Origin: an uncultured Hyphomicrobiales bacterium
Lineage (GTDB): Bacteria; Bacteroidota; Ignavibacteria; Kapaibacteriales; UBA7675
Length of the DNA stretch: 64,000 bases
Direction: 5' to 3'
Assembly (NCBI GenBank): GCA_964445695.1
Contig: CAYULF010000028.1
Coordinates: forward strand, 7,103-71,102
Shown here: one piece after another, positions 22,266 through 42,227 of the stretch
Numbering within the stretch: the first letter of the stretch is position 1
How the letters are laid out: every line of letters starts with the position of its first letter
Notes under the pieces: model-generated
Seen by the model: only the letters and a program-made list of their open reading frames with translations
What the model was told of the DNA's origin: nothing
Database searches by the model: none
Made by a program: the position numbers and the translations under genes

Positions 22266-22320
22266 GAATCATGCTGTCTTTCCTGTCAAATCACAGAACC
22301 CATGGACGGATTCAAACTGA

Positions 22321-24603: not shown

Positions 24604-24763
24604 GTTGATTTGTCCTTGATTGATGAAGGAATACAGCATGAATTGATTGAATTATGTGTTGTAATGTTTTTCGAGAGAACTGATTCTGTGCCAGAAAAGC
24701 GCTGGAATACGACGAGATGCCCAGGCTGTACTACAAACATAGCCCAGAAGCAAGCTTCAGTTC

Positions 24764-24783
24764 AATCCGTAGAACTACGTATT
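24764..24783. promoter_or_regulatory. 9-2-9 inverted repeat AATCCGTAG-AA-CTACGTATT (candidate NarL-family operator)
   Basis: Imperfect palindrome; 24761-24783 matches 41979-42001 at 22/23 nt. Confidence 0.7.
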
Positions 24784-24856
24784 TTGAGGAGGGAGAGCCA
24801 AGCAAGTACGACTGATTTTTCGTGCCATTAAATCAGAAGTGACGAAAACGTAAACG

Positions 24857-25498
24857 TCAGGGCAGATTCAATAGTGCAAATCTGATCAATCCGGCGACGT
24901 TCTTGATTTGCAGCTTTTGCATGAGGTTAGTGCGGTGAGCCTCGACTGTGCGCGGACTGATGAACAGTTCTTCAGCGATTTCCTTACTGGTCAAGCCCTT
25001 TGATATCAACTTCAGAATTTCCTGTTCGCGGTCTGACAGGTATATATTGACATTGGCAATGCTGAACTCATCACTGAAGTATGGAACTTCGTTGGGATTG
25101 GCCATTATCTTCAAAATTGACGAGCTGAAAACGCGCTGACCACGCACCACGGCATGCAGCGCATCAATCAATTCCTGACGGCCAACTTCTTTTGACAGGT
25201 ATCCGTTGGCCCCGGCGGACATGGCCTTGGTCAAGTGAAAATTGTCTTCGAGCGACGTCAACATGATGATTCGAATGCTCTTGTCGTACTCCTTCAGCTC
25301 CAGGACTGCTTCAATTCCGGTCTTTTCCGGCATCAGGATATCGATCAGTGCCGCATCGGGGTGGAGTTCTTTGACGAGCCGGACAGCATTGTTACCATCG
25401 GGCGCTTCGCCGACAATCTCAATGTCGTTTTCAGACTTCAGCAGCGTTTTCAATCCGAGCCGAAATACTTCATGATCATCTGCGATGACTATACGCAT
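24857..25498 (-). CDS. NarL/FixJ-family response regulator (REC + LuxR HTH)
   Basis: IADDH, LIDILMPEKTG, GANGYLSK, LSDREQEILKLI.KG.TSKEIAEELFISPRTVEAHRTNLMQKL; lies 63 bp downstream of the giant gene. Confidence 0.95.
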   Translation of the reverse strand: MRIVIADDHEVFRLGLKTLLKSENDIEIVGEAPDGNNAVRLVKELHPDAALIDILMPEKTGIEAVLELKEYDKSIRIIMLTSLEDNFHLTKAMSAGANGYLSKEVGRQELIDALHAVVRGQRVFSSSILKIMANPNEVPYFSDEFSIANVNIYLSDREQEILKLISKGLTSKEIAEELFISPRTVEAHRTNLMQKLQIKNVAGLIRFALLNLP

Positions 25499-25561
25499 GG
25501 TCGTAGGTGACAGGAGTGAAACAAGGTGCGGCTGCCGATTTCCCCTGGGCAGAAGCGCTCG

Positions 25562-28500
25562 TTATGAGCCGATCTTCAATCGACCCTCATTGAGTATCGT
25601 CGCGTCATTGCTGACTGCTCCGAATACTTCAAAAGCATTGACGCCGGGTAAAATATGCAATATTGCGCCGTTCTGCACACGTAAATCTCCACGGGCGCGA
25701 ACGGGCAGGGTCACGGTCTTGGTGCCGCTAAGGTTGATATCGACGTTGCCGTAGCCGTCCAGCCCATTGGGCGGAGCTGTGACGATCTGATTGATACCGT
25801 AATACTCGACCGTGTTTTGAATGTCTATCCGGTAGTTTGCAAATCCAGGCAAGGCAGTTGAAAAGTCGGCCGAACCACCAATCCTGAGCAGGGTATTGCT
25901 CGTCATAACGGCTTCCCCACCGCCCGCATTACCTACTCCGAAAGTCACCGCATCCAACACGCCGGAAATCAGTCTCATAGCCTCGGACACGGTCAAGTCG
26001 CGATCGAGCGTCACAACGTTGTTACCGGTCGCTCCACTGTTTTCGACCGTGAAACTCGCCATCGTGGCAGGCAGGCCGTCGCCCAACACCTGATTGGTTG
26101 TTCCACTATATACATAGCTCGCTTCCGTTGAAAACAGCCTGTTTGCGGTCCGAACATTGCCGCTGCTGACCGGCGATGCCACAATTCCCTGCGGAGACCC
26201 GATTCGGAGAGTCGCTCCCGTCGTGGTTTGAAACCACTCGCCGGAGATTGACCGGTCGGCCAGATCTAACGTTCCGGTATTTGACAGTGATGTTCCGACA
26301 GTCATACCGCCAATCGTGCGATCCGTGTCCAGTAAAACGACGTGGTCGCCTGTCCCGGCGGTCCCGCCTCCGATTACGATGCTGTCCTGCGGATTGTCGG
26401 GGAAAATTCCCGGGCCAACCGGCGCGCCTAGGTGCGATGGATCAAATGTCCACGTAGAACCAATATTCCACAATCCGGACGCCAGACTATAGAATATTCG
26501 CCTGAAAGCACCGACATCGCCGAGGGTCCAGTCTCCCTCAAACTCAGATGCCGCCAAGGCGGCCGGCGAAGTAAAGATGTTGCCTCCGGAGTTAAGTGTT
26601 GCACCCGACATCAGACGCCATGAACCACTGCCGCCTTCATCAACCGGATTCCAGCGGGCGATCGTGGCAAAATTGCTTTCGTCGCCTGTTATGTCATCAA
26701 CACCGTCGAGGTAATGAAACGTCCACTGACCGGACACACCGGTGCTTACGTCGCCTATTGCCCAATAACGCCGGATATAATCGCTCGCTCCGCCGCTCAG
26801 ATGCAAGTGGCCGCCGTCCGCTTTCTGACCCGGCGATACTCGAACACCAACAGAGCCATCGGCTCCTGCAACAGCAGCGGCAAACTCCGCAGGAGTGTAT
26901 TTATCCGCGCCGCCGTCAAAAGATCCAAGGGGGAACAGATAGTTGCCTCCGGAGGCCGTCACGGCTCGATGCAGTCGTCCGCTCAGCAGGCTCGTACGCA
27001 CGTATCGATATGGCGCGGCGCTTGTCCCCGCGTCGACAATTGCGCCAACAGCCGAAGACTGAACCGTAAGATTTGCACTGCTTCCAAGTTCGACCACCTG
27101 CTGATTTGAATTGGCGCCTTCACGCAGGTCGAGTATGCCGGCTACGCTGACGTCGTGACCAAGGTGAACGACGCCGCTACCCGCGGCGCGATTCATGGTC
27201 ATGTGCTGCAATGCCGTCACACCCGCGCCGGTAACGTTCTGATCGTCCGAGCCGCCGCCCTGGAAGGTCATGACCGCATCAGGAGCGGCTGCAGCGCTTC
27301 TCAGTTCGGTGAAATCAATGCGTCCGTCGTTCAACACGTCCGCCTGAATTCTGAGGTTACCGGCCGCCGCCAGCGGATGCAGCACAGCGCTTGTACTGCC
27401 GACCGCCAGATTCCAGATTGCACCGTTACTCACTTCTATATCAAATTCCTGGGCTGCGGCCGATAGAGCGTCTCCGAACTGAATCGTTCCGCCGGTTACG
27501 TTGACCGTGGACGCCAAAATATTGACATCCGCCGGGCGACCGACGGCGCTGCTCATATTTGCATTGCGCACCAAAAGCTTTCCGGCAGCCATGGCAAACG
27601 AAGAGCCGGGAGCGCGCAGATCAAATGAACCGAGCGTGGCGTTGTCATGACCGACAGTTGCAACATTAACCTGTCCGCCGGCCTGATAGTAGTCGAGCAA
27701 ATAGGTATCGACGGCTACTTCGGGACTGATGCGTCCTGCGACCGTCATCGTTCCGTTTAACACACTGATCCGGCTGCCGGCAGTATTGGTGTAGCGCAAG
27801 GAATTCCCGTCAAAATTTCCAATCACAACCGCTCCGCTGCTGTTAAGCAGCAGCTCGCCGCCATCGATCACCTGGGATGCACCGGAGCCGTCCTGCCCCA
27901 TGACATATGAACCAGATCCAGTTATGTGCAACGCCCCTGTTGCCGCAATTGTCTGAGTTCGAGATTGTCCAACGCCGTCGTCCATCGTCAACGTGCCGGC
28001 ACGCTGCTCCCAGGTGCCGTTAATAAAATTGATGGCGTCGCCGCTGCCGATTCGGCTGACACCCAGGTCGACAGAACTGACGACCGGCGTTGCCGGTGCA
28101 CCTTTGTCAAGCGTAACGCCATGCAGACGCACCGCCCCTACGCCGCTCAGGTTCTGAGTTGCCGTTGAGCTGAAGATCGTTTCGGCTTTGAAATTGGAAT
28201 TGTTCGGCACGGGACGCATCAACCATTCGCCGTCAATGTTAACATCGCCGCGCAGAGACAGGCTGTGTGTCCTTGGACCTGTGCCGCTCGTTTCTACCTC
28301 AAATGCCGCTCCGCCGGCAACTGAAAGACGACCGTTAACAAGAAGGGCCTGGTCAGCCGGAGAGCCAAACGCATCATTGTTGTCAAACACCAGTCGACCG
28401 GTTTGAACAGTCAGGTCGCCGCTCATGTCAATCCCGTCGCGATTGAGCATGACATTGCGTGTATTGTTGTCCGTGTCCACAAGAATGTCATTAACAGCAA

Positions 28501-31500
28501 GGGGAAACGCGCCGCCAAAAAACTGATCCAGTGAACCGCTGAAGACGTAATCTGCACGCGGCTCGAACACTCGCACGGCATCGCTGAATCGCCAGACGCC
28601 TGCGCTAGTGCCGGATTCGATACCCACAGCCGCAGCAATGTTAACAACCGCATCATCGCGTACGATCGATGCGCTGGTGCCGTAGGGACTTTCCGTCAGG
28701 AATGAACCCGCGCCGATGCGCAAAACCCCGTTGCTTGTTAACTCGAGATAGGCAATCTCCGGCTGCGTGTTTAACAATATTTCGTGGCCACCGCCAATAA
28801 TCACGCTGTCGCGCACCTCGTACTCTTGTCCGGGCGCGAGCTGCCAGTCGTGATTCGGGTATACCCCGGCAGGCACCGCTGCGCCGGCAAATCCGGTAAA
28901 TGACCAGGATGTTGAGTTATTCCAATCGCCGTCGCTGCGGCTATAGAAAATGCGTTGCGCACGCTCACCTATATAAAACTCGCCCAGGCCGGGCCAGGGA
29001 GTCGCTCCGACGGACAGTCGTACGTTGGCCGCACCAACATTCCACTCCAGATTCCGCCGATCCGACCACTCCGGCGTTTCAAGCGGAATACTGCGACGGC
29101 GGATAATGCTGTTAGTGGTTGTAAGGGATGCGAGCTCAGCCGCCGGGAAGCCAAGTGTGAGGTTGGCGGTGCGGCTGCCCAGCGCAAAGGTCGTTGCACC
29201 CGTTACGCTCCAATATCTGTCGATTTTGGCGGCAGCGTCGAGGCGGTTGCCGATCCATTCTTCATCGGGAACCGGCGTATACGAGATGACGTCAACCGAT
29301 CCGGCCACACCGCCGCCACCGGCCGCCAACTGTACCTCAACCGGCGTGTAATCGTCCAGATTGCCTACTTCAAAGACAATGTTGTCGGCCCCCGCGCCGG
29401 CAGGTTTGCGCATCTTTCCGTCAACGTGTCCCGCGTTGTTAACACGCAGTACATTGCCGGGAACCTGCACTTCCACATAGCGGTCTGCATCGCGGACGCG
29501 GATGTTGCCGGAGGAACTGAACGTCAAAGTGTTAATGACATGTACATGCGCCGTCGAGGAAGCCACATAGTCGGATTTAACCAGCAGATCCTCACCTTCA
29601 ATGCTGATGTCGTAGAAGTCAACGCCGCCGTGGTTGTCCAGGCGCAAATCACGGTCAATCTGACCGCGGAACGCAACTGATGCATCCAGCGGATCAAAAA
29701 GTCCATTATTGCGCAGTATCATGTCGCCGTACAGGTGCAGGCTGCGGCGTCCGCAGTTAAATGTTCCGTGCTCAATGAGCAAAGTGTCGCGAACGCCGAC
29801 GGGGTTTGCGCCGGTCGGCAAGGACAGGAACACGGAATTAAACGGCGTCGAGTTGTTGTCTACAATGATGGCTGCAACACTGTCCGGAAGTGCATCGCCG
29901 GTATTCTGGCTGCCGGCAGTACTGTTAAACACGTAGCGGCCCACCCCAAAAATACGGGTGTCGGTCTGTATTGCACCGCGGTCGCCAAGGGGAGCGATTC
30001 CCTGCAGGTGATGCATGCCAAGCGTACAGGAATCCTGGAGTTCAAAACTCAGCCCGCGCACGGTGCCCAGGTCGCCTTCAATGTACAGTTCGCCGGGCAG
30101 ATTGTTAAACACCTCCACTAGAACAGAGCGAATAGTGGGTGTGATAATTGAACCGGGAAGACTGACGCGTTTGCCGTTGCCGATCCGCACAATGTCCGTC
30201 GACTGATCCGGAATGCGCGGTGCGACCGCCCCCGTGTAACCTGTTATCGACCATGTTGTGGGGTCGGTCCAGTCGCCGTTCTGACGACTATAGAAGGTCG
30301 TGCTGTTTAACTCCGCCAGCAGGAAATCGCCGAATTCCGTGTTGCCGGAAGAGCGCATCGTGGTGTCGGTGCGCGTCGGCGTTGAAAGCGTCGCCCAACT
30401 TCCGCCGGATGGGCACAGTGCCGGAAGGTCCGGGCAGGCAGGCGTGTAGCGATGCTGCTCAAAAAAGAGCAATTCTGGACTGTTGCGCAGATCGTCGGGA
30501 TTGATAAACTGCAGCGTTAAACGGAAGGTACGCGAAGCTCCCAGGTCAAACGCCCCGGCAGTTGTAACATTCCAGTAGCGTTGAATATTGTTGTCGAGTT
30601 TAACATTTGCCGTGGAGATGTGCGGGTGATTGCTGCCGTTGGCCATCACGCCCACCAGACCGGCGGTTCCCCCGCTGCCCTGCGTTTCAAACACCGCCGG
30701 TGTATAAGCACTCAGGGAAGCGGATGTGCCGACCGCAAAGTCGACTATTCTGGCGCCGGCGTCGACCCAACGATAGAGCCGACCATCAACGTGCCCCTGG
30801 CCGTTGCGAATCAATTGCAGCGTACTGCTGGTAGTCGGGGAATGCTCAACATAACGTGCATTGCTGCGAGCATCAATGAGGGCCTGGTTTCCGACGGCAA
30901 ACTCCAGCGTGTTGTGCACGATCAGATTGGAGTTGGCGCCGCTGCCAAGAATAAGATTTCCACCGGATTTGGACAGCCGCAAATTGTAAGTTTGCAATCC
31001 ACCGGCATCGTCATTGTAGATCGTTTGGTCGGAACTTCCGTTCAACACCAGCAGGCGGGCGTCCGACGGATCTGAACCGCTGACCGCATCAAACAATCCG
31101 TAGTTAACAATATCGCCGCCCACTTCCAGCGTATTGCCGTACAGTTGCAGACGGTGCGCGTTGTCGACTTCGACTCCGTTACTGATGACAAATGTTTCTT
31201 CCGTGACCCGTGTTTTGACTCCGCCGGAGACAGCATGCAGCGAATAGATCGGCATGGAACCGGCAAGTTTGATAATACCGGTATTTGTAAACGTTGAATC
31301 TCCCGTCTGAATCAATCCGCCCGTCATACCGCTTCCGCTGCCCGCATCGACGCGGAAGTCCGCCGACGCGCCGCTGGTTCCATTGGCGACAATAATGCGA
31401 CCGCCACCCATGCTGAACGACGAGCCGGAATTAACCATATCAAAGCCAATCCTGGACGCATCGCTGTTGCCTTGCCGCAGTACGCGCGTAGTTCCACCGG

Positions 31501-34500
31501 AAGACTGTTCGTACTGCACCGTCGAACCGGCGTTAAATCGGCCAAAAATGCCCGCAACATCAAATTCACCGTCTTCTACTCGGACAATTGTGCCCGCGCG
31601 ATACAGAAAGTGTTCGTTTAACCCGTCGCCGACGCGCAGATCGCCGCCACGCAGTCGTATCCGTGTGGCTGCGTTGGAAATCAGGCTGCCGGAGCTCTTG
31701 ATTTCCCCATCCTGAATATCAAATGCAGTGTTCGGCGACATGGTAACTGAAACGTTGCCATATGAGAGGCCCAACGTTCCGCTGGTGGCATGGCGCAGCA
31801 CCCCGGCAAGCGGTCTGAACAAATAATTCGATGCACGGCCGGTCGCTTCGGAAAAGGTCGCCGACAGGTTTATGAGTGTATCTGCCAGGCCGTTGGATTT
31901 CTGCATTCTGACGCGTGCAACATCGCCCCAGACGCCGTCTCCGCTGAGCGTGTTGTTGCCTCCGCCGGAAAAACGCAAAACCGTATTGTTGGTCGGACTG
32001 TTGTTTAAGTAGACGCCCGCACTTGAACCGGACTGTGCAACGTTGCGCATGTTGCCCGTGATTGTCAGTGTGTCGTAACGCGCGCCGGAGTTGTCGCCGT
32101 CGATAATGCCATCGTACTCAACATCCAGATTGCGACTGACAACCAGATGTTTCAGTCCCGGCGTGGCACCGAATCGGACAATTCCACGGCCCAGAGCCTC
32201 CGTGCCGTTAAACGGGCCACCGATGCGCAACGAGTCGACCATGACTGAATCGAGGTCCATCGTGATAATGTGACCATCGACCATTACGGTATCGTTGCTG
32301 TACAATTCAAATGGATAGTAGGAAGCCGAAATACCGGCATGCCCGATGTTGGACCAATTTTCAGGATTGCTCCAGTCGCCCGTCTGCCGGCTGTAGAAAA
32401 TCCGGCCGGTAAAAAAGACGAGTTTGCCGCCGGCGCTCCAGTCGCCATCGACAAATGGCGCATCGGTAGCCACCACCGGCGAAGGCGTGGCTTTGGGGTT
32501 GTCGCCGACGTTGATTTCCCACTCGCCGGTACCGCGGTAAAACGCGGGCAAATAACTCGAGACGTCGCCTGTAATGTCAACATCTTCGTACCCAAACTGC
32601 AGGGAGTTTGAGACGATGGCTGAAATATCGCTTGTCGTCACCGTCCAGAATTTTTTCAGCATGTCATCCTGCAAACGCTGAGGATGCAATCCATCGCGCA
32701 GTCTGACGCCGATCGTCGGCAAAGCACCGTAAGTTCCTGTGATGCTGAGATCGGCCGGATTGTACACCGTGTCAATACCTATCGGGAACAGGAACGACTT
32801 CGCGCCGGCCGCCGTACTAAACTGTTTAATGATGATGCCCGCGCTGGTAGACCCGTCGCTGCGGAACATCCGTGTTTTGCTGAAAACTCCGGCACCGGGA
32901 CTCAGAGTCGCCGCAGGCTCAAACGTCAATTCAATATCGTTTCCAAGGAGAACAAGGTTGTCCTCGTCGAACGTCATTGTGCCGCCGATGGTGGCACTGG
33001 TGGCAAACTCAAGGGTGTTTTCGTCTTTGTTCAGGCTGAAATCGTTAAAACTTGTCGCTGCGCTGCCGCGAATTTCCTGCTGTTTAAATCCAACACAGGT
33101 CACCTCTCCCGTTCCGGTGTTGAGCGCGGCAGTGGAATTGTTGTTAACCCAGTCACCGCCGAGGTCGATATCATTGCTGCCGATTTCAAATGTACCGCGC
33201 GTTAACACAAGCGAGTCGGCCACGTCAATATTCTTGCCGAGTTGAATCGTGCCCGGGTTTGTCCGCTGTGCGTCGACTTCAAAAGCCCACAAGATGTCCG
33301 GCAGTCCGTTGCCCGTCTGCTGGGTCACCTGAATTGCGTCATTAACAATCAGCACCGTATAGTCTTCCACTTCGCCGGTACTGCCGTTGCAGGGCCCTGA
33401 CGTGTTGGTTCCTTCGCGCATCTGTACGCGCATCCGTGCAACGCCAGGTAAGGTTCCGCCTGGAATTGTGAAGTCAGGCGAGGTCTGCTGACCGGACCCT
33501 GTGAAATCGACCATCCGCTCAGACGAGTTGTCGTCAAACGACCCATCGCGGTCAAAATCGATCCATACACGCCAGCGTTTGGTGCTGCCCGTGCTTGGAT
33601 TAAATATCATGTCGTACTGCTGCCCGGCTGTCATGGTAATGACGCTGTCGGCATAGTAAAACAAGCCGTTGCCGAAGTTGTTCGTCGAATTATCAAAAAT
33701 CGTGGCAGTGCTGTTGTCGCGCACGCGCACGCGCGAAATCCAGTGTGTATTTGAATTCCAACCGGGTCGACAATAGCTGAAGTCACCGCCGACCGACGCA
33801 TTGTATCCCTCAGCGGTATAAACAATGTTCATGCTGTCGAGGAACGCACGCGTATATGTCAACACATTGCCGTTCCCGGTAAATCCACTGCGGATACCAT
33901 CCTGCGATCCAACTCCAAGCGTACCTCCCTTTTCCACCGTCAGCGCCGCTCCACGCAATTCAAACGGTCCAAGCATCAGCGTGCCGGTTTTCTTGACCGT
34001 CACATTGGGCCCATAAAAGGCATTCTCGGTTGCACCGCCGCCGTACAGCCATGATGTACCAATGTTACAGTCCATCGAGACTGTGTGGTTGGCGGCTATG
34101 AATACTACGTCATACTGGGTATTCGGGTGGCGCGAAGCCGGTGCGCCGTTGTGGTCGACGGTCGACCAAGTGTTAACATCGCACCAGTCGCCGTCCGTGC
34201 GGCTGTAGAACGTCGTGATCGCAATCGAATTCTGGTTGCCTATGACAAAGTCGCCCAGCAAGGTCGAGCCGTCCGTCAAAACCTGTGTCGATCCCAACAG
34301 GGTGTCGACCGGGAAGTCGTTGGCGACGATAGTACTGGCGCTACCGTCGTAGTCAATATTGCCGAGTGTTAAACGCGTATCGCCGCAGCCGAAGCCGGCC
34401 GCATAGTTCGCGGCGGCTGTATTGGGACGCAGAGACTGCCAGCCCTCGGTCGCGCCGCGGTGAATACCGATTTCACTACAGGCGATCGCATCGATAAGGC

Positions 34501-37500
34501 CGGCATCCGCCGGATCGAGAATCTGGCATGTCACGGTCACCGTGCGATTGCCGCGAACAAAAGTTGAATTCTGCGGGGTCGTGACACGCCAGAAGCGAGG
34601 AACATACCGGTTGGGATCAATCGGCGTGTTAAAATGGTTCAGCGCCGTGTGCCGCCCAGGATTGTTGCGAACACCAACCAGGCCCGCCGTCCCGCCCGAA
34701 CCTTCCAATCTGAACGTAAACGGCACGTAATTTTCATCCTGCCCAACGTGAAACAAAACCGTCTGGGTGCCGGTACCAACGCTCATCTGCAGGTTGCCGT
34801 CCACGTGACCAATCCCCGCGCGCACCACACTGCCGGGTACTATTACATTGCAGTCCGTATTGCTGCGCGCGTCGATGTACGCCTGGTTCCCCGTTTCAAA
34901 TCGCAGGCTGCCATTGACGGTTAGCGCGGAGTTTGTTCCGAGTGTAAGCAGCCCCGTATTGATCGCTTTGTCCACTGTCAGGTTAAACAGCGAGAGATTG
35001 GACGCCGAAGCAATGATGCTCTGACCGGTGCTGCCGTTAAACGTCACCGTAGAAGTCTGTGGCGTGATCGAAGCATTGGTTGTTGCGCGCAGATCCCCCT
35101 GCAGGTTCAACGCCGCTCCAAGCACCAGTTCACCACTCTCAATGCGGCAGGTGTCAGTGACATTAACGCTGTTGTCCAGCGTGACATCCGCGGCATTTTT
35201 CTGAATGATCAGGCGTGCCACGGTGCCGGGCAGTCCGTCGCCGGTGATTTGTGAGGCCAATGCACCGGTGTAAACAAATGTCCCACGATTGTGCGATGCC
35301 GGATTGTAATTGCGCACCGAGGTCTGGATCGACCCGGAAGCCGCCGCGGCGCGCAATCCACCAACGTTGCCGCACATCAGCATCGACTCTACGTCCATAC
35401 TGAACGTACCTGTGCCGGTCACCACATTGATGTCCGCATTAAACACGCCGGATGAGTCGATTGTCAGTTCCCCATTAACGGTCGCCGCGGCGTCGAGACG
35501 AATGGTTTTGCTGTCGCCAATGTAAATGCGTGCATTGGCTGTGGGCACGATGGACGCGGGAGCGCCGCCATATCCCTGCGTAGACCAGGAGGCCGGATTT
35601 GTCCAATCCCCGTTGTCGACAAGACTGTAAAAACTGTATGCATCGGGCTCGCCAATTGTCAGCGTGCCGAACTCGGTAAGTCCTTCAAATGCAATGGTCG
35701 TCGCCGTGCGCAGCCCCTGGGCCGGATTCTCAAATCGATTCGGCAATATCCAGGACGTTCCATTCCAGAGGCGTGATTCGTAGAGGAGCGGGTCGGCACC
35801 ATTGCGCGCATCGCCGGCCAGGAAGTTAAGTTCAGCGGTGTAACTGCGATCTGCGCCAAGACTAAACGATCCGCCGGACGGCACGGAAATACGCCACTGA
35901 CGCCGTACGTGACGCGAATCGTTTAACAAACTGCCCGCCGGAGCAACACCGGTGCTCACGGGCGAAGATGATGCGATTACAGTGTCCGATCGAATGCCCA
36001 CCACTCCGGCACTTCCACCAGTCCCGTCAACAGCGAGTATTACAGGCGTATAAGCGGCGGCATAACCGACTTCGTACTCTATCGATTGCGGCCCTGTTGC
36101 AACAGTTTTCCGCAATTCTCCGACGACGTGACCGGGAGCGCCGCCGCCACGCACAATTGATCCCTTAGTCCAGATGTGACGCTCGCCGACGTCGATATTT
36201 CCGCCTGTAAGGATAAGGCTGTTTTCAATTGTCAGTCCATCCGTCGCCGCACCAATAAACCGTGCATCAAGTCCCGCACCGCCGTTGTCGACAGTCAGAT
36301 CGTAAAACTCCTGACCATGTCCGGATACTCGCAGTTTTTGCTGCGCCGCACCGTTAAATACAACCTGTGAATTGCCGGCCGAAAACGTCCCACCCGTATT
36401 GATCCAGTCCCCTGCCAGGCTCAGCGTTGAACTGGTCATGTTCAGCGTTGCCGATGTGCCCATCAACAGGTCATTGTCAATTGCCATATCGTCCAGCGGC
36501 GTGATTGCACCCAGACCGTCAAACAGAACGGTGTTAAATGCATTGTCCACCGTACTGCGCGATCTGATATTGATGTTCTCACCCAATGATTCGGAGCGAA
36601 ATATAACGGCATTGTTCCCGGCGTCAAAAACGCCACCGCTGTTCTCCCAGTCGCCGCGAACTTCCAGGTCAAAGCCGGCCGACTCAAGCGTTGTATTGGT
36701 CTGAATTTCAAGATTGTTAAGCACGACAAATGTACTGGCGCCGGTGCTGGAGAGCGACTTTACGCCGCTGCCCGACGTTACGAGGTTGTAGTAGTTCAGA
36801 TAAACAAGTGAATCGGCGGGAGCAAGCGGCCGCGTCGGAATCGACTGAGCGCCCGCCGCGTTAAACACTACGGTAGAACCGTCGGTGAGAAAACGCTGCG
36901 AGGCGGCGCCGGCAAATTTCAGTTCGGAAATATCCAGTAAAGCACCGATTCTGATCTGTCCCTGCGGACGCAGGCTGATCGCCGCAGTTGGCCCGCGCTC
37001 TCCGCTGATGGCAAGTTCGTTGTACTGCAACACGGCCGGACTGGAGCCTGAGCTGGGAATTGTCTGGTTACCGGTGCCGCCAAACGTCACACGACCATTG
37101 GTAAATGTGGGAGCGCTGTAGTTGGTCGGAAATGTATTGCGCACCAGGAGCTCGCCGTCGCGCATCTTGAGACTGCGCCCGGAACTGTTGCCGTTGACGG
37201 TGAATGCAGCCAGATCGAGTACGCCGTTTTCTATTACCAGCGAATCGCTGATCGCGATGGACTTGCCTAGCACCAGGGTGTCGCCCACGGCTTTGTCAAC
37301 AATGATTGTCTGCACTGGGCTGGGCAGCCCGTCGCCCGTGGATTGCGGCGAGGCTGTTCCGTTAAATCGATACACGGCTGCTGCGCTCAGATCGCGAATG
37401 GTCGTCTGCACCGCTCCGGACGCTCCAACCAACGCAAAACCTTCGGAATGGGCATTAACAAATTCCGTGTTGTCGGCCAGCCGCAAAGTATCGCCTGTAA

Positions 37501-40024
37501 AGGCATAGTCGCCGTTGACCGTGATTTTGGATCCGCTTTGAATGTCAATCAACGCAGCAGGAGCCGGATCGGCATTGACGCTGATTTCGTGGTTGCGGAT
37601 AAACACCTTGTCGGATAACTTATTCGGAATTGTGCTCGAAGGCGGGCCGCCAAACGTCGAACGCGACCATGTCGACGGATTTTCGTAGGGGCCGTCAATA
37701 CGACTGAAATATTGCGCAATACCGGCATCATCTTCACCGGCTGTCCAGTCCCCGTCCAACGCGTTAACTTCCTGCGAGTAAAACAGTTTAAAGTTAAACT
37801 GCACGATGTCGTCGGAAAGGCCCGGATCAATCTGCCAGAAACCACCCGCCTGCGGCCAGGAAGGCGAAAAGTAGAGAACGACGTAACTACCTTCGTTGCC
37901 GTTGACTTCGCTCTGAACGTATTCAAACTGGACGGTCGCACCGCGCGGATTGAGCGTGACAGCGTTGGTCGTTATCGTCCAGTATTTTTCGAGCGAGACA
38001 TTTGTAAGTTCAACTGCAGGATGTTCCTGCGTCACCGCACGCATCTGAACTTCGGCATTGGCTCCAAAGCTTGCGCCGCCATTCAGGAACTGCACCAAAC
38101 CGGGCGTATATGCTCCGGGCGTGCCCAGCGGAAATCGAAGATCAAGAGGTGTTGACGCTCCCTGAGCGACGGAGCGAATCAATGTGCCCGCATTTACTCC
38201 TTCCGCCGAAAAAATATTTTTGTCAACGTTGAAAACGCGTGCTGTTGCGGCGTCGCTGTAGATGTTAATTCCTGCAGCGAGTGTGAGGTTGTGCCTTGCG
38301 ATATCCAGTTTGTGACTGGATATGAGTCGTATATGCCCGAGCGCTACAACCGGCATATCCAGAACAACATTGCCCACACCACTTTTGTTTATCTGAATTT
38401 CCGGTAACGAGGTTGGGTTGGAATTGCTGCCACGAATAAGTTGTTCACCCGAACCATTGAAGATGATTCGCGAGGTGTTGCCTTCATTGACGGCATTAGC
38501 ACTGTTGCCGTTGTTAACAAAATCGCCGCCAATTCTGAGGTCGTTATTGGCAAAAATCAGTCGGTTCCCGCCGTCGCCGGCCAAGGTAAAATCGCTCAGC
38601 AGCGAGAGGTTGCGATCCAGGCGAACACGCGGATTCAGATTCGCTTCCATGACGAGTTCGTACACATCCGCCGCGCTCTGGATATCGTAGCGATCGTTGT
38701 CCTGATCCTGATTGTCGATGCGAAGGACGCCGCCGGTGACGCTGCCGGCACCGGCAAAGTTTACGTATTCTTCGCGACCGTTGCTGCCGTCAACTACGCG
38801 CTGCAGGACAATCTCGCCGCCGCTCCAGTCAAAAGTCGACGCGGCCGAGCTGATGTCGAACATGCCAAACGCACCGTTCGTGGAACGAGCGGCCGTTCCA
38901 ACGCGCAGAAATCCGCCACTCTGTTCGTAGGTCAGTTCATCCGCGGTGGAAGTTCCGGAAAAACGAGCTGCAACGTTTACCTCCCCTCCGAGAATTTCAA
39001 TCTGCGCTCCATCGTCGTACAACAGGCTGTTTTCATTGGCGCCGTCGCCGACATTAAACACACCCTCGCTGACGCGCAGTAAGCCTGCCACAGTACCGTC
39101 ACCGTTCTGACCTTCAGCCGTCACGGAAGAATTGTCAAGCCACAATCCACCGGTCGACGGAATGGTCCAGGCGGGGTTAACAAAAAATTCTGCCGACAGG
39201 GAAAACGCGCCGGCGAGGTGCAGCAGGCCGCCGTCAATAGTTAACCAGTTGTCGGGAACATCAAAGTCTGCGGCAGCGACATCAACGACGTCGGCAAGTG
39301 AGTTTTTGTCGACGGTAATTCGATTAAAACGCGTAACGGCTCCTGTACCGCCCAACGTGACGGAGCCGGAACCACTCAGCCGAAGATCAGCTGTAGCCGG
39401 ACCTCCGGGGCGCAGATCCAGGACATTCAAGTTCGTGAGAGAGCCGGAAATTTCGAGTTGGTGGCTGAGCGCATTGCCTGCGGTGGCAACATCCAGCGAG
39501 GCTGTCGCCGAAATGCTGAGATCGCCCTGAACCGTAACGGTGCGAGCGAAATTGTTAACAAATCTCAGCGTGCCGGTTGTAATCGGAAATGGCCCCGATA
39601 CTGTGAAATCGGCATCAATATTTACGAGGTTGCCTGGTGCATCCTTGAGAATGAGCAGTTGGTTGAACGTTGTAGTTGCGTTGCCTCCGATTGTCTGAGC
39701 AACCGAGCCATGAAATTCTACTTCGCCGTTGCCGGCGTTAAAGGTTCCGGAATTTGTCCAGTCACCGGTAAGGCTGATTCTGCCGTCGCCCTGCTGAGTG
39801 AGGTTGGACGCGGCGTCAATTTCGAGCGAACCGTTCAGGGTAAACAAAGCGCCGTCCGTCAACGTCAATCCTGCGCCGTTAGTCAGGCTGAACGGAGTCT
39901 GAGCCGGCATTGAAGACTGCGCCAGGAGCAAACAGAGGAGTATGGTCAGCAGGTTAACACAGTACCAGTGACGTCGTGTTCTCAGGCGGGGCCCAGTAGT
40001 ATGTAGAGATATGCGATTCCACAT
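25562..40024 (-). CDS. Giant (4820 aa) secreted repetitive adhesin-like protein with beta-solenoid repeats and one GEVED domain
   Basis: Uninterrupted 14.4-kb ORF with a signal peptide ending SSMPA-Q. Seven FYS.x.G.W....TW..P...D.V.I modules. GEVED signature WRVWIDFDRDGSFDD...ARMRVQM...GEVEDYTV. No T9SS CTD and no autotransporter barrel at the C-terminus. Confidence 0.93.
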   Translation of the reverse strand: MWNRISLHTTGPRLRTRRHWYCVNLLTILLCLLLAQSSMPAQTPFSLTNGAGLTLTDGALFTLNGSLEIDAASNLTQQGDGRISLTGDWTNSGTFNAGNGEVEFHGSVAQTIGGNATTTFNQLLILKDAPGNLVNIDADFTVSGPFPITTGTLRFVNNFARTVTVQGDLSISATASLDVATAGNALSHQLEISGSLTNLNVLDLRPGGPATADLRLSGSGSVTLGGTGAVTRFNRITVDKNSLADVVDVAAADFDVPDNWLTIDGGLLHLAGAFSLSAEFFVNPAWTIPSTGGLWLDNSSVTAEGQNGDGTVAGLLRVSEGVFNVGDGANENSLLYDDGAQIEILGGEVNVAARFSGTSTADELTYEQSGGFLRVGTAARSTNGAFGMFDISSAASTFDWSGGEIVLQRVVDGSNGREEYVNFAGAGSVTGGVLRIDNQDQDNDRYDIQSAADVYELVMEANLNPRVRLDRNLSLLSDFTLAGDGGNRLIFANNDLRIGGDFVNNGNSANAVNEGNTSRIIFNGSGEQLIRGSNSNPTSLPEIQINKSGVGNVVLDMPVVALGHIRLISSHKLDIARHNLTLAAGINIYSDAATARVFNVDKNIFSAEGVNAGTLIRSVAQGASTPLDLRFPLGTPGAYTPGLVQFLNGGASFGANAEVQMRAVTQEHPAVELTNVSLEKYWTITTNAVTLNPRGATVQFEYVQSEVNGNEGSYVVLYFSPSWPQAGGFWQIDPGLSDDIVQFNFKLFYSQEVNALDGDWTAGEDDAGIAQYFSRIDGPYENPSTWSRSTFGGPPSSTIPNKLSDKVFIRNHEISVNADPAPAALIDIQSGSKITVNGDYAFTGDTLRLADNTEFVNAHSEGFALVGASGAVQTTIRDLSAAAVYRFNGTASPQSTGDGLPSPVQTIIVDKAVGDTLVLGKSIAISDSLVIENGVLDLAAFTVNGNSSGRSLKMRDGELLVRNTFPTNYSAPTFTNGRVTFGGTGNQTIPSSGSSPAVLQYNELAISGERGPTAAISLRPQGQIRIGALLDISELKFAGAASQRFLTDGSTVVFNAAGAQSIPTRPLAPADSLVYLNYYNLVTSGSGVKSLSSTGASTFVVLNNLEIQTNTTLESAGFDLEVRGDWENSGGVFDAGNNAVIFRSESLGENINIRSRSTVDNAFNTVLFDGLGAITPLDDMAIDNDLLMGTSATLNMTSSTLSLAGDWINTGGTFSAGNSQVVFNGAAQQKLRVSGHGQEFYDLTVDNGGAGLDARFIGAATDGLTIENSLILTGGNIDVGERHIWTKGSIVRGGGAPGHVVGELRKTVATGPQSIEYEVGYAAAYTPVILAVDGTGGSAGVVGIRSDTVIASSSPVSTGVAPAGSLLNDSRHVRRQWRISVPSGGSFSLGADRSYTAELNFLAGDARNGADPLLYESRLWNGTSWILPNRFENPAQGLRTATTIAFEGLTEFGTLTIGEPDAYSFYSLVDNGDWTNPASWSTQGYGGAPASIVPTANARIYIGDSKTIRLDAAATVNGELTIDSSGVFNADINVVTGTGTFSMDVESMLMCGNVGGLRAAAASGSIQTSVRNYNPASHNRGTFVYTGALASQITGDGLPGTVARLIIQKNAADVTLDNSVNVTDTCRIESGELVLGAALNLQGDLRATTNASITPQTSTVTFNGSTGQSIIASASNLSLFNLTVDKAINTGLLTLGTNSALTVNGSLRFETGNQAYIDARSNTDCNVIVPGSVVRAGIGHVDGNLQMSVGTGTQTVLFHVGQDENYVPFTFRLEGSGGTAGLVGVRNNPGRHTALNHFNTPIDPNRYVPRFWRVTTPQNSTFVRGNRTVTVTCQILDPADAGLIDAIACSEIGIHRGATEGWQSLRPNTAAANYAAGFGCGDTRLTLGNIDYDGSASTIVANDFPVDTLLGSTQVLTDGSTLLGDFVIGNQNSIAITTFYSRTDGDWCDVNTWSTVDHNGAPASRHPNTQYDVVFIAANHTVSMDCNIGTSWLYGGGATENAFYGPNVTVKKTGTLMLGPFELRGAALTVEKGGTLGVGSQDGIRSGFTGNGNVLTYTRAFLDSMNIVYTAEGYNASVGGDFSYCRPGWNSNTHWISRVRVRDNSTATIFDNSTNNFGNGLFYYADSVITMTAGQQYDMIFNPSTGSTKRWRVWIDFDRDGSFDDNSSERMVDFTGSGQQTSPDFTIPGGTLPGVARMRVQMREGTNTSGPCNGSTGEVEDYTVLIVNDAIQVTQQTGNGLPDILWAFEVDAQRTNPGTIQLGKNIDVADSLVLTRGTFEIGSNDIDLGGDWVNNNSTAALNTGTGEVTCVGFKQQEIRGSAATSFNDFSLNKDENTLEFATSATIGGTMTFDEDNLVLLGNDIELTFEPAATLSPGAGVFSKTRMFRSDGSTSAGIIIKQFSTAAGAKSFLFPIGIDTVYNPADLSITGTYGALPTIGVRLRDGLHPQRLQDDMLKKFWTVTTSDISAIVSNSLQFGYEDVDITGDVSSYLPAFYRGTGEWEINVGDNPKATPSPVVATDAPFVDGDWSAGGKLVFFTGRIFYSRQTGDWSNPENWSNIGHAGISASYYPFELYSNDTVMVDGHIITMDLDSVMVDSLRIGGPFNGTEALGRGIVRFGATPGLKHLVVSRNLDVEYDGIIDGDNSGARYDTLTITGNMRNVAQSGSSAGVYLNNSPTNNTVLRFSGGGNNTLSGDGVWGDVARVRMQKSNGLADTLINLSATFSEATGRASNYLFRPLAGVLRHATSGTLGLSYGNVSVTMSPNTAFDIQDGEIKSSGSLISNAATRIRLRGGDLRVGDGLNEHFLYRAGTIVRVEDGEFDVAGIFGRFNAGSTVQYEQSSGGTTRVLRQGNSDASRIGFDMVNSGSSFSMGGGRIIVANGTSGASADFRVDAGSGSGMTGGLIQTGDSTFTNTGIIKLAGSMPIYSLHAVSGGVKTRVTEETFVISNGVEVDNAHRLQLYGNTLEVGGDIVNYGLFDAVSGSDPSDARLLVLNGSSDQTIYNDDAGGLQTYNLRLSKSGGNLILGSGANSNLIVHNTLEFAVGNQALIDARSNARYVEHSPTTSSTLQLIRNGQGHVDGRLYRWVDAGARIVDFAVGTSASLSAYTPAVFETQGSGGTAGLVGVMANGSNHPHISTANVKLDNNIQRYWNVTTAGAFDLGASRTFRLTLQFINPDDLRNSPELLFFEQHRYTPACPDLPALCPSGGSWATLSTPTRTDTTMRSSGNTEFGDFLLAELNSTTFYSRQNGDWTDPTTWSITGYTGAVAPRIPDQSTDIVRIGNGKRVSLPGSIITPTIRSVLVEVFNNLPGELYIEGDLGTVRGLSFELQDSCTLGMHHLQGIAPLGDRGAIQTDTRIFGVGRYVFNSTAGSQNTGDALPDSVAAIIVDNNSTPFNSVFLSLPTGANPVGVRDTLLIEHGTFNCGRRSLHLYGDMILRNNGLFDPLDASVAFRGQIDRDLRLDNHGGVDFYDISIEGEDLLVKSDYVASSTAHVHVINTLTFSSSGNIRVRDADRYVEVQVPGNVLRVNNAGHVDGKMRKPAGAGADNIVFEVGNLDDYTPVEVQLAAGGGGVAGSVDVISYTPVPDEEWIGNRLDAAAKIDRYWSVTGATTFALGSRTANLTLGFPAAELASLTTTNSIIRRRSIPLETPEWSDRRNLEWNVGAANVRLSVGATPWPGLGEFYIGERAQRIFYSRSDGDWNNSTSWSFTGFAGAAVPAGVYPNHDWQLAPGQEYEVRDSVIIGGGHEILLNTQPEIAYLELTSNGVLRIGAGSFLTESPYGTSASIVRDDAVVNIAAAVGIESGTSAGVWRFSDAVRVFEPRADYVFSGSLDQFFGGAFPLAVNDILVDTDNNTRNVMLNRDGIDMSGDLTVQTGRLVFDNNDAFGSPADQALLVNGRLSVAGGAAFEVETSGTGPRTHSLSLRGDVNIDGEWLMRPVPNNSNFKAETIFSSTATQNLSGVGAVRLHGVTLDKGAPATPVVSSVDLGVSRIGSGDAINFINGTWEQRAGTLTMDDGVGQSRTQTIAATGALHITGSGSYVMGQDGSGASQVIDGGELLLNSSGAVVIGNFDGNSLRYTNTAGSRISVLNGTMTVAGRISPEVAVDTYLLDYYQAGGQVNVATVGHDNATLGSFDLRAPGSSFAMAAGKLLVRNANMSSAVGRPADVNILASTVNVTGGTIQFGDALSAAAQEFDIEVSNGAIWNLAVGSTSAVLHPLAAAGNLRIQADVLNDGRIDFTELRSAAAAPDAVMTFQGGGSDDQNVTGAGVTALQHMTMNRAAGSGVVHLGHDVSVAGILDLREGANSNQQVVELGSSANLTVQSSAVGAIVDAGTSAAPYRYVRTSLLSGRLHRAVTASGGNYLFPLGSFDGGADKYTPAEFAAAVAGADGSVGVRVSPGQKADGGHLHLSGGASDYIRRYWAIGDVSTGVSGQWTFHYLDGVDDITGDESNFATIARWNPVDEGGSGSWRLMSGATLNSGGNIFTSPAALAASEFEGDWTLGDVGAFRRIFYSLASGLWNIGSTWTFDPSHLGAPVGPGIFPDNPQDSIVIGGGTAGTGDHVVLLDTDRTIGGMTVGTSLSNTGTLDLADRSISGEWFQTTTGATLRIGSPQGIVASPVSSGNVRTANRLFSTEASYVYSGTTNQVLGDGLPATMASFTVENSGATGNNVVTLDRDLTVSEAMRLISGVLDAVTFGVGNAGGGEAVMTSNTLLRIGGSADFSTALPGFANYRIDIQNTVEYYGINQIVTAPPNGLDGYGNVDINLSGTKTVTLPVRARGDLRVQNGAILHILPGVNAFEVFGAVSNDATILNEGRLKIGS

Positions 40025-40090
40025 GTTGAAAAGGCGTCTCCGGTACGGGAGTAAGACAGACTGTGTATGATGGCGTACAGGCAGAAAGGG

Positions 40091-41821
40091 CTATTCGATA
40101 ACTGTCACATAGTAATCCTGGGCAGCCGGGTTGGCGGGGGCGATGCCGATGTTAATAAACTTGACTTCGACCGAATTGTCGGCATCTACAAATGCGTGCC
40201 CGATAACTATACCTGCCGGCAATTGTGCCGAGGGCGAAACAAAAACCGTCGATCCGGCGCGCGCGCCGGTCACCGTAAAGGTTTCGGTGCGGAAGTCGTT
40301 GGACCCAAGGGCACCGACATCGACATTTACGGTAACTTTGATCACGTTTGCAATCGTGGTGCCGCGGGTTCCAAGCTTGACTGAACCATTCACATCAAGG
40401 TGCGCGGTCGGAGTCACTGTTCCGATACCCACGTTGCCACTCGTCGAAATGCGCATGTATTCGGTGTTGTTGCTGCGAAACGGCAGATCACGGGCATTTG
40501 TGGTACCGAGGAAGTCGCCGGGATCAATGCTGTTACCTGTGACCGACCATCCACGAAGGGAGCCCGTCAGCGAAATCCAGCCGGATCCGTCGTGACCTTC
40601 AAAGTCGGCGCCGGTAAAACGAATGCTACCGCCTGTGGCCTGGGTTGTATTGCCAAGACGAATGGCGCCGGCAACATCCAGCATTTGCTGCGGCGATGTT
40701 AAACCGATCCCCACGTTGCCCGCGGTCGTCACCAGGAGACGCTGCACATTGTTAACACGCAGTCGAAGATCCTGCGCGTTGAGCGTTCCAAGGAACGAAG
40801 CGGAAGTGGCGCTGTTCCCGTTTAGATTCCAGCCGGAACCACCTGCCCCGCCCCCGGTAAAGGAACGCCATTGCGTACCGTCATGTCCTTCAAAATCCGT
40901 TCCACTCCAGCGAATAACACCGCTGGTCGCCGTAGCTGCGCCGCCAAGACGCAAAGCACCGTCGACATCGAGTTTAACCTGTGGGTTGCCTACACCAATT
41001 CCCATGCGACCTGCGCCGCTGATGATGAGGTTAAAGCCCGCATTTGCAATTACGGTATTCGTCGTCATGCTGCCGCCCAGACCAACGGAATTGGCGGAGC
41101 GTTGCAGGCCATTGGAAAAAGTCAAGGGCAGTTCGTAGTCGGTCCCGCCGAGCGCGGTGGACAGACGGCCCGTGCCGACCGCGGCAGAAACCAGCCCACC
41201 GGCATTAAGGGCCGTGAAGTCTATGTCACCCGAGGAGACGATTCCGGCGGCGGCTTCGATCTGACCGGACGCGTTCACGCGAAATTCGGAGCTTGGCCCC
41301 ACACTCAGCAGGGACAAAGGATTTGTTGTTCCAATGCCGACATTGCCGCCGGCGGCAATGCGTGCACGCTCGGAGTTGTTCGTGCGCAACACCAGCGGCT
41401 GGCCATCGGTTGTACCGACGAAGTCAGATGCGGGATTGGTCGAGGCATTACCGCTCGAAGACCAGAAACCGGAATTAACAACATCGAGCGTGACCAGATC
41501 GCGCCAGTCGGGCGCTGCCGGCGTTCCGGCATTGTATTGAAATCGATTGTCGCTCGTGTTAAAGATCAAAAGAGCGGCCGCTGGTAAAACAATGGCGTCG
41601 CGTTGCGCCGTCGTCATGCGCGGTGTTAACAAACCGGAATTTGTTGAAGACAGCTCAAACAACGCCGAGGGATCCGGCGTGCTCGTTCCAAGGCCGGCAT
41701 TCTGCGCCTGTGCGGCTGTTAATACGGCCAACACCCCCGCCAGAAAAACCAGCACGCGCAATAGCGACCTGCTGAATTTGCCGAGATATAAGCGTACAGA
41801 AATTGTGGCAGCTGGATCCAT
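40091..41821 (-). CDS. Secreted fibre-like protein (~576 aa) with GNVGIGT repeats (Bacteroidota tail-fibre/trimeric-adhesin-like)
   Basis: Signal peptide ends TAAQA-Q. QNAGLGTSTP..SALFEL.S...GLL.PRMTTAQRDAI head. Three W...GN...FLGT.....L..R.NN..R..I...GNVGIG repeats and two IR..G.DFEGHDG..W units. The start is uncertain (41821 or 41884). Confidence 0.85.
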   Translation of the reverse strand: MDPAATISVRLYLGKFSRSLLRVLVFLAGVLAVLTAAQAQNAGLGTSTPDPSALFELSSTNSGLLTPRMTTAQRDAIVLPAAALLIFNTSDNRFQYNAGTPAAPDWRDLVTLDVVNSGFWSSSGNASTNPASDFVGTTDGQPLVLRTNNSERARIAAGGNVGIGTTNPLSLLSVGPSSEFRVNASGQIEAAAGIVSSGDIDFTALNAGGLVSAAVGTGRLSTALGGTDYELPLTFSNGLQRSANSVGLGGSMTTNTVIANAGFNLIISGAGRMGIGVGNPQVKLDVDGALRLGGAATATSGVIRWSGTDFEGHDGTQWRSFTGGGAGGSGWNLNGNSATSASFLGTLNAQDLRLRVNNVQRLLVTTAGNVGIGLTSPQQMLDVAGAIRLGNTTQATGGSIRFTGADFEGHDGSGWISLTGSLRGWSVTGNSIDPGDFLGTTNARDLPFRSNNTEYMRISTSGNVGIGTVTPTAHLDVNGSVKLGTRGTTIANVIKVTVNVDVGALGSNDFRTETFTVTGARAGSTVFVSPSAQLPAGIVIGHAFVDADNSVEVKFINIGIAPANPAAQDYYVTVIE

Positions 41822-41981
41822 ACGTGCGTCCGAATTAGCGTGCAGTCGGGGCAAGACAGTCCCTGATCGCTGTGGCGGAGCCACGCGACCTTACGTTTCC
41901 AAATTGCACTGGTCTTGCTGGAGAGCTGAAGCCTATGCTTCAACATCGGCTACAAAGTTCTTCAAAGCAAAGCTCTTATTC

Positions 41982-42001
41982 AATCCGTAGAAATACGTAT
42001 T
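41982..42001. promoter_or_regulatory. Second copy of the 9-2-9 inverted repeat (AATCCGTAG-AA-ATACGTATT)
   Basis: Matches 24764-24783 with one substitution and lies at the same distance from the downstream ATG. Confidence 0.7.
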
Positions 42002-42190: not shown

Positions 42191-42227
42191 GGGAAAGTGC
42201 TGATCTTTGAAACAAATTTGCCGCGTC

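Follow-up and report, generated by a model that had tools for sequence, protein, structure and literature searches.

The described systems closest to the element reported here are three kinds of transcription-factor site and one kind of promoter. NarL and NarP of Escherichia coli bind inverted TACYYMT heptamers with a 2-bp spacer (the 7-2-7 arrangement); the lux and tra boxes are 18- to 20-bp palindromes of LuxR/TraR-type activators that overlap the −35 element; and BvgA of Bordetella uses TTTCCTA heptads centered far upstream, from which it spreads cooperatively toward −35, driving the fha adhesin and its export partner. The promoter is that of the housekeeping σ factor (σA) of Bacteroidota, in which a −7 box, TAnnTTTG, occupies positions −12 to −5 (PMC9723704) and a TTTG/TTG element lies near −33 (PMC7366714); for Flavobacterium the consensus TTG-N17-23-TAnnTTTG is cited, and Chlorobaculum has a related motif whose −7 box differs (bioRxiv 10.1101/172254). 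Against this background we analyzed a 64-kb stretch of contig CAYULF010000028.1 (hereafter the window), whose nearest genomes are the metagenome-assembled genome (MAG) Co_bin.359 (GCA_030430495.1) and Candidatus Kapaibacterium; the organisms are uncultured and Kapabacteria-like and come from aquaculture and biofloc metagenomes. A motif that occurs twice in the window, before each of two groups of minus-strand genes, is, judged by its sequence conservation, a cis-element common to both: unit 1, which encodes a fibre-like protein, a giant protein with a GEVED domain, and a response regulator (RR1), and unit 2, which encodes a 760-amino-acid (aa) secreted protein and three further conserved proteins (the module). 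The element is ordinary in kind, a transcription-factor site, and very probably an operator linked to a promoter.

On the forward strand the motif is a 23-mer, TTCAATCCGTAGAA(C/A)TACGTATT, located at 24761-24783 (site A, an exact copy of TTCAATCCGTAGAACTACGTATT) and at 41979-42001 (site B, with one mismatch), so that the near-identity over 22 of 23 positions reported in an earlier note on this DNA was recovered. With up to three mismatches allowed on both strands, the window contains no other match to the 23-mer, and none of 100 shuffles of the window yields one. A position weight matrix built from 14 motif instances assigns 43.3 and 42.1 bits to sites A and B, compared to 11.5 bits for the next match in the window and 20.1 bits for the best shuffled window; a chance match is excluded as the origin of the motif. 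Scans of the window with the half-site and the weight matrix found no further copies, including upstream of the second response regulator gene (RR2) and of the ∼1,500-aa paralogues with type IX secretion system (T9SS) sorting domains. Since the relevant genes all lie on the minus strand, the motif reads AATACGTA(G/T)TTCTACGGATTGAA in the sense direction, and we predict operators at 24760-24785 on the minus strand for site A (sense AAAATACGTAGTTCTACGGATTGAAC, with the core AATACGTA-GTTC-TACGGATT) and at 41978-42003 on the minus strand for site B (sense AGAATACGTATTTCTACGGATTGAAT). The likeness of the two upstream regions is limited to ∼55 nucleotides (nt) around the motif. The flanking blocks listed in the earlier note are present at both sites, CTACAAA at 24731-24737 and 41950-41956 and AAGCAA(A)GCT at 24748-24756 and 41965-41974, and the distance of 158 nt from the start of each copy to the ATG (24603 and 41821, respectively) is arithmetically correct. 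The first of these start codons is consistent with the 760-aa gene calls of related contigs and the second with those of two orthologues, called at 576 aa, although in the collection the fibre protein itself is entered as 556 aa.

The motif is a conserved cis-element. In the orthologous clusters, which were retrieved with the fibre, the 760-aa protein, and RR1 as starting points (loci are designated L005 and so forth), the proteins are only 38 to 75% identical and the upstream regions are otherwise unalignable, the motif being the sole conserved block. Site A is kept in L005, L034, L035/37, L038, and L039, and site B in L009, L010, L011, and L012/13. Between RR1 and the 760-aa gene, the single block common to the window and its orthologues is the motif, as ATTACGTAGAACTACGGATTG in L034 (RR1 75% identical), ATTACGTAATTCTACGGATTG in both L035/37 (62%) and L039 (58%), and AATACGTAATTCTACGGATTG in L038 (63%); upstream of the fibre gene, L012 and L013 (Kapaibacterium, fibre 55% identical) align with the window only at AATAAGTATTTATACGGATTGA. 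It is the best-conserved 19-mer in both regions, with 4 summed mismatches against L034, L035, and L038 in region A (at least 13 in 300 of 300 shuffles) and 2 mismatches against L012 in region B (at least 3 in 300 of 300 shuffles). In L039, too, the site stands before the module gene, and the motif extends to more distant loci: L006/L007, whose module proteins are ∼39 to 40% identical, carry AATTACGTAATTTTACGTATTG ∼100 nt before the first module gene, and L040 (response regulator 51% identical) has TACGTACTTTTACTTATTG before a PTL_trimer fibre gene. In L008, a locus with module proteins ∼35 to 41% identical and without the giant gene, ATCCGTAGTTTTACGGATTG precedes the fibre gene and CTCCGTAATTTTACGGATTG the module gene. 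This repetition of one site per unit at a large evolutionary distance supports the proposal, already made in the earlier note, that the fibre/giant unit and the 760-aa unit form one system. Absence of the motif upstream of orthologous clusters, which that note had named, together with a failure of both regulators to bind, as grounds for giving up its reading, is not what we observe, and the genome scan that it suggested returned, for the strict pattern, just the two cluster sites in the species representative Co_bin.359.

When 13 independent instances are aligned, 14 of 26 columns do not vary, and the arrangement of the columns is that of an inverted repeat. The 9-2-9 register described earlier does capture a dyad, with 81% of the symmetric cells pairing compared to 25 to 43% when the axis is slid by one to three columns, yet this pairing is imperfect (8/9 pairs in site A and 7/9 in site B). 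Because the ninth pair fails in 6 of the 13 instances and the inner pair formed by columns 6 and 19 (A against G) pairs in none of them, the conserved symmetry is, on this alignment, better written as an imperfect 8-4-8, AAT(A/C)CGTA-N4-TACG(G/T)ATT. The dyad covers ∼20 bp, within the ∼16 to 20 bp expected of the operator of a dimeric regulator with a GerE/LuxR-type helix-turn-helix (HTH). Two distant loci depart from the window's asymmetry in opposite ways, L006 with the A-type half on both sides (TACGTA...TACGTA) and L008 with the C-type half on both sides (TCCGTA...TACGGA), which argues for a true inverted repeat with half-site AT(A/C)CGTA over a direct repeat. A direct-repeat reading, TACGTA/TACGGA at a 10-bp phase, was rejected, since L008 reads TCCGTA-N4-TACGGA.

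The comparison with NarL put forward in the earlier note holds for the general plan and fails in its particulars. As at NarL/NarP sites, the inverted repeats are imperfect, their halves begin with TAC, and a gene of the NarL/FixJ family is adjoining. However, a comparison by eye shows that the half-site AT(A/C)CGTA is not TACYYMT: TACGTAG/T places a G at the first Y, a position at which NarL needs a pyrimidine, and the right arm, CTACGGA, is not AKRRGTA. The half-site centers are also 12 bp apart rather than 9, in keeping with 8-4-8 and not 7-2-7 symmetry, and the promoter context is that of a Bacteroidota −33/−7 promoter instead of σ70.

An inverted repeat may also act once transcribed: it could be an attenuator, a small RNA, or an element of the 5′ untranslated region (UTR). 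Sites A and B do form weak single-strand folds (−3.4 and −3.5 kcal/mol; z about −2.3 to −2.7), and Rfam RAGATH-25 matches over site A, but below threshold (14.8 bits compared to a gathering score of 49; E 0.37). Across the whole window Rfam gave no match at gathering scores, and in E-value mode there was only this chance-level RAGATH-25 match at site A and none at site B. The L012 and L021 variants no longer form the fold (−0.2 and −1.8 kcal/mol, which does not improve on shuffles). Changes on both sides are seen in just one of nine pairs, which itself fails to pair in 6 of 13 instances; another is formed in none of them, and the motif lies upstream of the start sites predicted below. Of the readings considered here, a hairpin in the transcript is the least credible.

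The position of the motif relative to a putative promoter is also conserved. Its terminal ATTG is followed, after 20 to 21 nt, by a TAnnTTTG box with 5 to 6 of the 6 fixed positions in all 14 of the fibre/module cluster sites, and the same ATTG-to-box spacing is found in three copies from Niabella; by simple arithmetic, the chance of a 5/6 match anywhere in the ten offsets searched is ∼5% per site. In promoter A the predicted −7 box is TATGTTTG (6/6; 24734-24741, minus strand), 21 nt after ATTG, and in promoter B it is GAACTTTG (5/6; 41953-41960, minus strand), 20 nt after ATTG, kept as GAACTTTG or GAAGTTTG in L009, L011, and L012; variants at other sites are TAATTTTG, TAAGTTTG, and TATTTTTG. 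The shared CTACAAA block is the complement of the 3′ part of this box. A TAnnTTTG-type box 20 to 21 nt after TTG falls within the N17-23 published for Bacteroidota σA promoters, the differences being that the −33 element is here the ATTG inside an operator half-site, so that the 3′ ATTG of site A is predicted to play both parts, and that for Kapabacteria the promoter type is itself a prediction. In the window TAnnTTTG is ∼3 times denser in noncoding than in coding sequence (7 compared to 16 occurrences, which are small numbers). Scans for σ70 promoters and terminators near the sites gave nothing useful, the σ70 model not applying to this promoter type.

If the box occupies −12 to −5, transcription would start at ∼24729 and ∼41948 on the minus strand, with 5′ UTRs of ∼126 and ∼127 nt, and the motif would span ∼−54 to −32 with its dyad center near −44. 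The similar UTR lengths account for the equal distance of 158 nt to both ATGs. We therefore do not share the weight that the earlier note gave to "exactly 158 bp," which is a coincidence: the distance from the start of TACGTA to the ATG, 178 nt in the window, is 62, 78, 97, 139, 141, 150, 183, or 200 nt in orthologues, and the conserved spacing is the 20 to 21 nt to the −7 box. The lux and tra boxes likewise are dyads of ∼20 bp that overlap the upstream promoter element and have their center in the low −40s, although here the position is predicted; this is the geometry expected for class II-type activation by a dimer with a GerE-type HTH. The sequence differs from that of lux and tra boxes, and the presumed binder would be controlled by phosphorylation and not be an acyl-homoserine-lactone receptor.

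The same geometry might mean that RNA polymerase itself reads the motif as an extended promoter element, through a −35-like contact of an alternative σ factor or as a UP-like element, for example, with no dedicated transcription factor involved. Its orientation and its distance to the −7 box are indeed fixed in all instances, and it occurs in several phyla at loci without a nearby regulator. Yet a 20-bp dyad whose halves swap type in L006 and L008 accords with a dimeric binder, the box that follows is the −7 consensus of the housekeeping σA, and the strict pattern is confined to two sites in the Co_bin.359 genome, all of which makes direct reading by polymerase improbable.

We consider the best overall explanation, which we hold with somewhat better than even confidence, to be an operator that lies within two σA promoters and from which RR1 activates transcription. 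An imperfect 8-4-8 operator would be built into two promoters of the Bacteroidota type in such a way that the ATTG of the proximal half serves as the −33 element, and a dimeric HTH regulator bound there would contact RNA polymerase at −33 in the fashion of a class II activator. Both units would be switched on together, unit 1 with the fibre, the GEVED giant, and RR1, and unit 2 with the 760-aa protein and its three companions, upon phosphorylation of RR1 by a kinase encoded outside the window. Activation, taken by itself, is probable, and we favor it over repression. There is no motif between the giant gene and RR1, and RR1 is probably cotranscribed as the final gene of unit 1, in which case the circuit would be under positive autoregulation. 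In this it may resemble the BvgA-fha system of Bordetella, where a NarL/FixJ-family regulator, a giant adhesin, inverted-repeat sites, and positive autoregulation (here proposed) come together. In contrast to fha, the present site is single and fused to the −33 element, and nothing indicates homology between the adhesins.

As for the protein that binds, co-regulation of the two units, probably via an embedded NarL-type regulator, was the core idea of the earlier note, and in light of the conservation it appears reasonable. We put the chances that RR1 binds both sites at about even. RR1 orthologues (51 to 98% identical) lie directly upstream of the site in seven lineages (the window, L005, L034, L035-37, L038, L039, and L040), and their HTH region, TSKEIAE.LFIS.RTV[E/D][A/T]HR.NLMQKL...GL.RFALLN, is nearly invariant even though overall identity falls to 51%. 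Three Ignavibacteriales-type loci that were found through the motif alone, L021, L028, and L031, have a comparable arrangement. The order in L028 is a kinase (Reg_prop, Y_Y_Y, and HisKA_3), a LuxR-type regulator, the motif, a receiver-only protein, and a PA14 surface protein; in L021 a LuxR-type regulator is followed by the motif and then by T9SS cargo, with a second copy before the next T9SS protein; and L031 repeats the arrangement, the surface proteins of L031 and L028 being FG-GAP and PA14 proteins. The HTH of the Ignavibacteriales regulator matches that of RR1 (47% identity; E 2e-14), and that of RR2 gives no match at E < 0.1. Linkage of a regulator gene to the site thus extends to the window, L005, L034, L035, L038, L039, L040, L021, L028, and L031.

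Two observations concern the surroundings of these sites. In L040 (Kapaibacterium) an insertion sequence (IS) element separates the RR1-like gene from the site: a DDE transposase (DUF4372 plus DDE_Tnp_1; 10746-11906) lies between that gene and the motif-bearing fibre promoter and leaves the motif and the −7 box intact. In L021 (5700-5730 and 1935-1960), and at the equivalent places in L028 and L031, a third ATACGTAC half-site stands 22 nt, or about two helical turns, upstream of the main site. This half-site is absent from the two sites in the window, and it hints that at the Ignavibacteriales-type promoters two or more dimers bind cooperatively.

Several points weigh against activation by RR1. 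A site that overlaps −33 could equally serve a repressor. The start sites, and hence the −44 position, are predictions, and no RNA runs were found for start-site mapping, the sequence being present only in DNA metagenome runs. Domain scans of the open reading frames (ORFs) found no histidine kinase encoded in the window. The orientation of the motif is fixed with respect to the downstream gene, with the ACGTA half distal and the CGGATTG half proximal in every instance (the reverse orientation scores only 7 to 9 bits with the weight matrix), and together with the invariant A/C asymmetry in the window's lineage this is unusual for a simple homodimer site. Finally, L006/L007 and L008 carry the motif without a LuxR-type gene within 6 to 10 kb, and L029, Niabella, five Planctomycetota loci, and L017 do so without a LuxR-type HTH in the fetched DNA, which suggests that the binder need not adjoin its site and could belong to another family.

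This last point supports a genuine operator with a different binder, either RR2 or a protein encoded elsewhere, perhaps of another family, since no LuxR-type HTH occurs within the fetched 4 to 10 kb at L006/7, L008, L029, Niabella, the Planctomycetota loci, and L017. RR2 is likewise of the NarL/FixJ type and lies in the cluster, and in L008 a receiver-only protein occupies its place. On the other hand, the L039 cluster retains the motif but lacks an RR2 orthologue, the RR2 gene has no motif upstream and lies beyond a terminator-like hairpin, and the RR2 recognition helix differs from those of RR1 and the Ignavibacteriales regulator; RR1-type genes, by contrast, abut the site in the seven Kapabacteria-like lineages, and similar LuxR-type genes do so in the Ignavibacteriales-type loci. 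On these comparisons RR2 is a less likely binder than RR1. We regard a binder other than RR1 as unlikely though of some weight, and only a small part of that weight falls on RR2, which is improbable in its own right.

Explanations that assign the two copies to DNA rearrangement have less to recommend them than activation by RR1. Sites A and B are direct copies 17,218 bp apart that flank unit 1, as might be expected of recombinase targets mediating excision or phase variation of the 17-kb fibre/giant/RR1 segment, and in Bacteroidota surface proteins commonly undergo phase variation. We found, however, no recombinase domain or gene among the window ORFs scanned and no A-B joint indicative of deletion or inversion in four assemblies (contigs only, so the power of this search is weak); the arrangement is intact in all orthologous contigs, and other loci (L006 and L040) have single promoter copies. 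Recombination between the sites is accordingly very improbable. An invertible promoter was rejected because the copies are direct and not inverted and because the ORFs scanned lack recombinase domains. A repeat of the repetitive extragenic palindrome or miniature inverted-repeat transposable element type was also rejected, as the strict pattern occurs twice in Co_bin.359 and once in the Kapaibacterium genome, each time at an orthologous promoter. Viral contigs searched for the motif pattern gave no match.

Outside the lineage of the window the motif is rare and not confined to close relatives. When 185,579 species genomes were scanned with AATAMGTAKTTMTACGGATTGA, 12 matches were obtained, compared to ∼0.5 expected by arithmetic at uniform base composition. 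Three of these are orthologous promoters, and the other nine amount to four independent cases, namely, Ignavibacteriales (L021), Niabella, a CYTH-DUF6623 region of Planctomycetota, and Phycisphaerales (L017), all of them intergenic and co-oriented with the downstream gene. The Niabella case consists of two paralogous regions (L019, with an rteC-like gene) and a third copy in L024; two of the Niabella copies stand before an rteC-like gene and its paralogue. A looser pattern applied to metagenomes gave seven matches, of which L028, L029, and L031 look genuine and L027 is ambiguous; L030 and L032 were discarded because they lie within coding sequence, and L026 because it lies between oppositely oriented genes and is not co-oriented. 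These matches suggest that the operator is distributed more widely than the lineage. A more far-reaching claim, that TACGTA-N4-TACGGATTG (19 to 20 bp) is the operator of a cross-phylum regulator subfamily controlling cell-surface fibre and adhesin genes, we put forward only tentatively. If it were true, the motif would define, in Kapabacteria-like lineages, the regulon of an uncharacterized surface apparatus consisting of the fibre, the giant, and a four-gene cassette.

Two of the outside cases have features of their own. In the Niabella MAG (JASGIU010000001.1; L019 and L024) there are at least three paralogous promoter segments of ∼100 nt, in which the motif is preceded by an ATGAT-AAAA-ATCAT inverted repeat. 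In L019 one segment precedes a small gene, after which comes a gene of the RteC family such as conjugative transposons carry; L024 has a paralogous arrangement whose 279-aa gene is without a Pfam match. In Planctomycetota, five genomes from different orders (L014, L015, L018, L020, and L023; for example, L023, 5480-5720) share a nearly identical CYTH-DUF6623 intergenic region of ∼200 nt in which the motif is present as an exact copy, with another ACGGATT ∼40 nt upstream. That the nucleotide sequence is conserved over the entire 5′ region suggests that it is a structured leader or was recently transferred horizontally.

A literature search for the motif string gave only unrelated primer-like matches, and we came upon no description of it in the searchable literature. 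Its deep conservation and its possible cross-phylum spread are the main source of its interest. In addition, it would provide a concrete regulatory link between two putative operons encoding proteins without family assignment, as well as an example of an activator-type site fused to a −33/−7 promoter in a Bacteroidota lineage for which few operator-promoter architectures have been described, and it could serve as a probe for further members of the surface system in metagenomes.

With respect to the genes themselves, unit 1 begins with the fibre-like protein (576 aa; 40091-41821, minus strand), to which a precomputed Pfam assignment, PF26696 (PTL_trimer), is attached, and continues with the giant protein (4,820 aa; 25562-40024, minus strand), whose GEVED domain is a stalk domain of fibrillar adhesins (PMC10952558). 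RR1 (24857-25498, minus strand), a NarL/FixJ-type response regulator with REC and GerE HTH domains, starts 63 nt past the giant gene and ends with a stop codon 71 nt upstream of site A. Unit 2 opens with the 760-aa secreted protein (22321-24603, minus strand), for which the structure model (predicted local distance difference test score 76, predicted template modeling score 0.74) is all-β with a long run of short strands, mostly like a parallel β-helix. Foldseek found no significant match for this model (best E 0.07), and the nonsignificant ones are almost all parallel β-helix tailspikes and autotransporter passengers; only the fold class, and not a function, can be stated from such a model. 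Genes 2 to 4 of the unit (17213-22205, minus strand) encode proteins of 727 aa and 434/457 aa and an OmpA-like protein of 490/494 aa. After the OmpA-like gene, a consensus scan places a terminator-like hairpin with a T run at 17135-17152 (minus strand), likely the end of unit 2, before RR2 (16222-16866, minus strand; NarL/FixJ type with REC and GerE domains). NCBIfam and Pfam searches gave no match for the fibre, 760-aa, 727-aa, and 434/457-aa proteins, the fibre having only its precomputed PF26696, and three of the four cassette proteins are therefore without a match in either database.

This four-gene cassette (17213-24603; proteins of ∼750 aa, β-helix-like, ∼700 aa, ∼410 to 434 aa, and ∼450 to 490 aa, OmpA-like) is also present in L006, L008, and L035-L039. 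It is kept down to ∼31 to 41% identity, has no Pfam or NCBIfam family besides the OmpA-like C terminus, and in L008 is directly preceded by the PTL_trimer fibre gene; it appears to be an uncharacterized surface or secretion module. Within it, the 115-nt gap between the 760-aa and 727-aa genes contains a strong GC-rich hairpin without a T run (22238-22268, minus strand; sense GGTCGGGC-GAAC-GCCCGACC), which could act in processing or stability between the cistrons or as a partial terminator. Downstream of RR2, below 15915, the window holds at least three complete tandem paralogues of ∼1,500 aa and a fourth that is cut by the window start (1-15915). The one paralogue scanned (11362-15915) has a C-terminal T9SS sorting domain, the others are its paralogues, and none has the motif upstream.

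On the other side of unit 1, the region between site B and a GH3 gene (42088-42200) contains an inverted repeat, GTTTAAA-N5-TTTAAAC, as well as two copies of TGACCGGTC that lie ∼20 nt from each other. L009 and L011 retain both elements, and L012 also has the CCGGTC core; they may form another regulatory site or mark where the GH3 transcript ends. Farther along the window, a noncoding gap of ∼1.2 kb between a 996-aa ORF and a thiolase gene (50300-51570) includes a tandem array at 50900-51095 with 3.7 copies of a 53-nt unit (93% matches).

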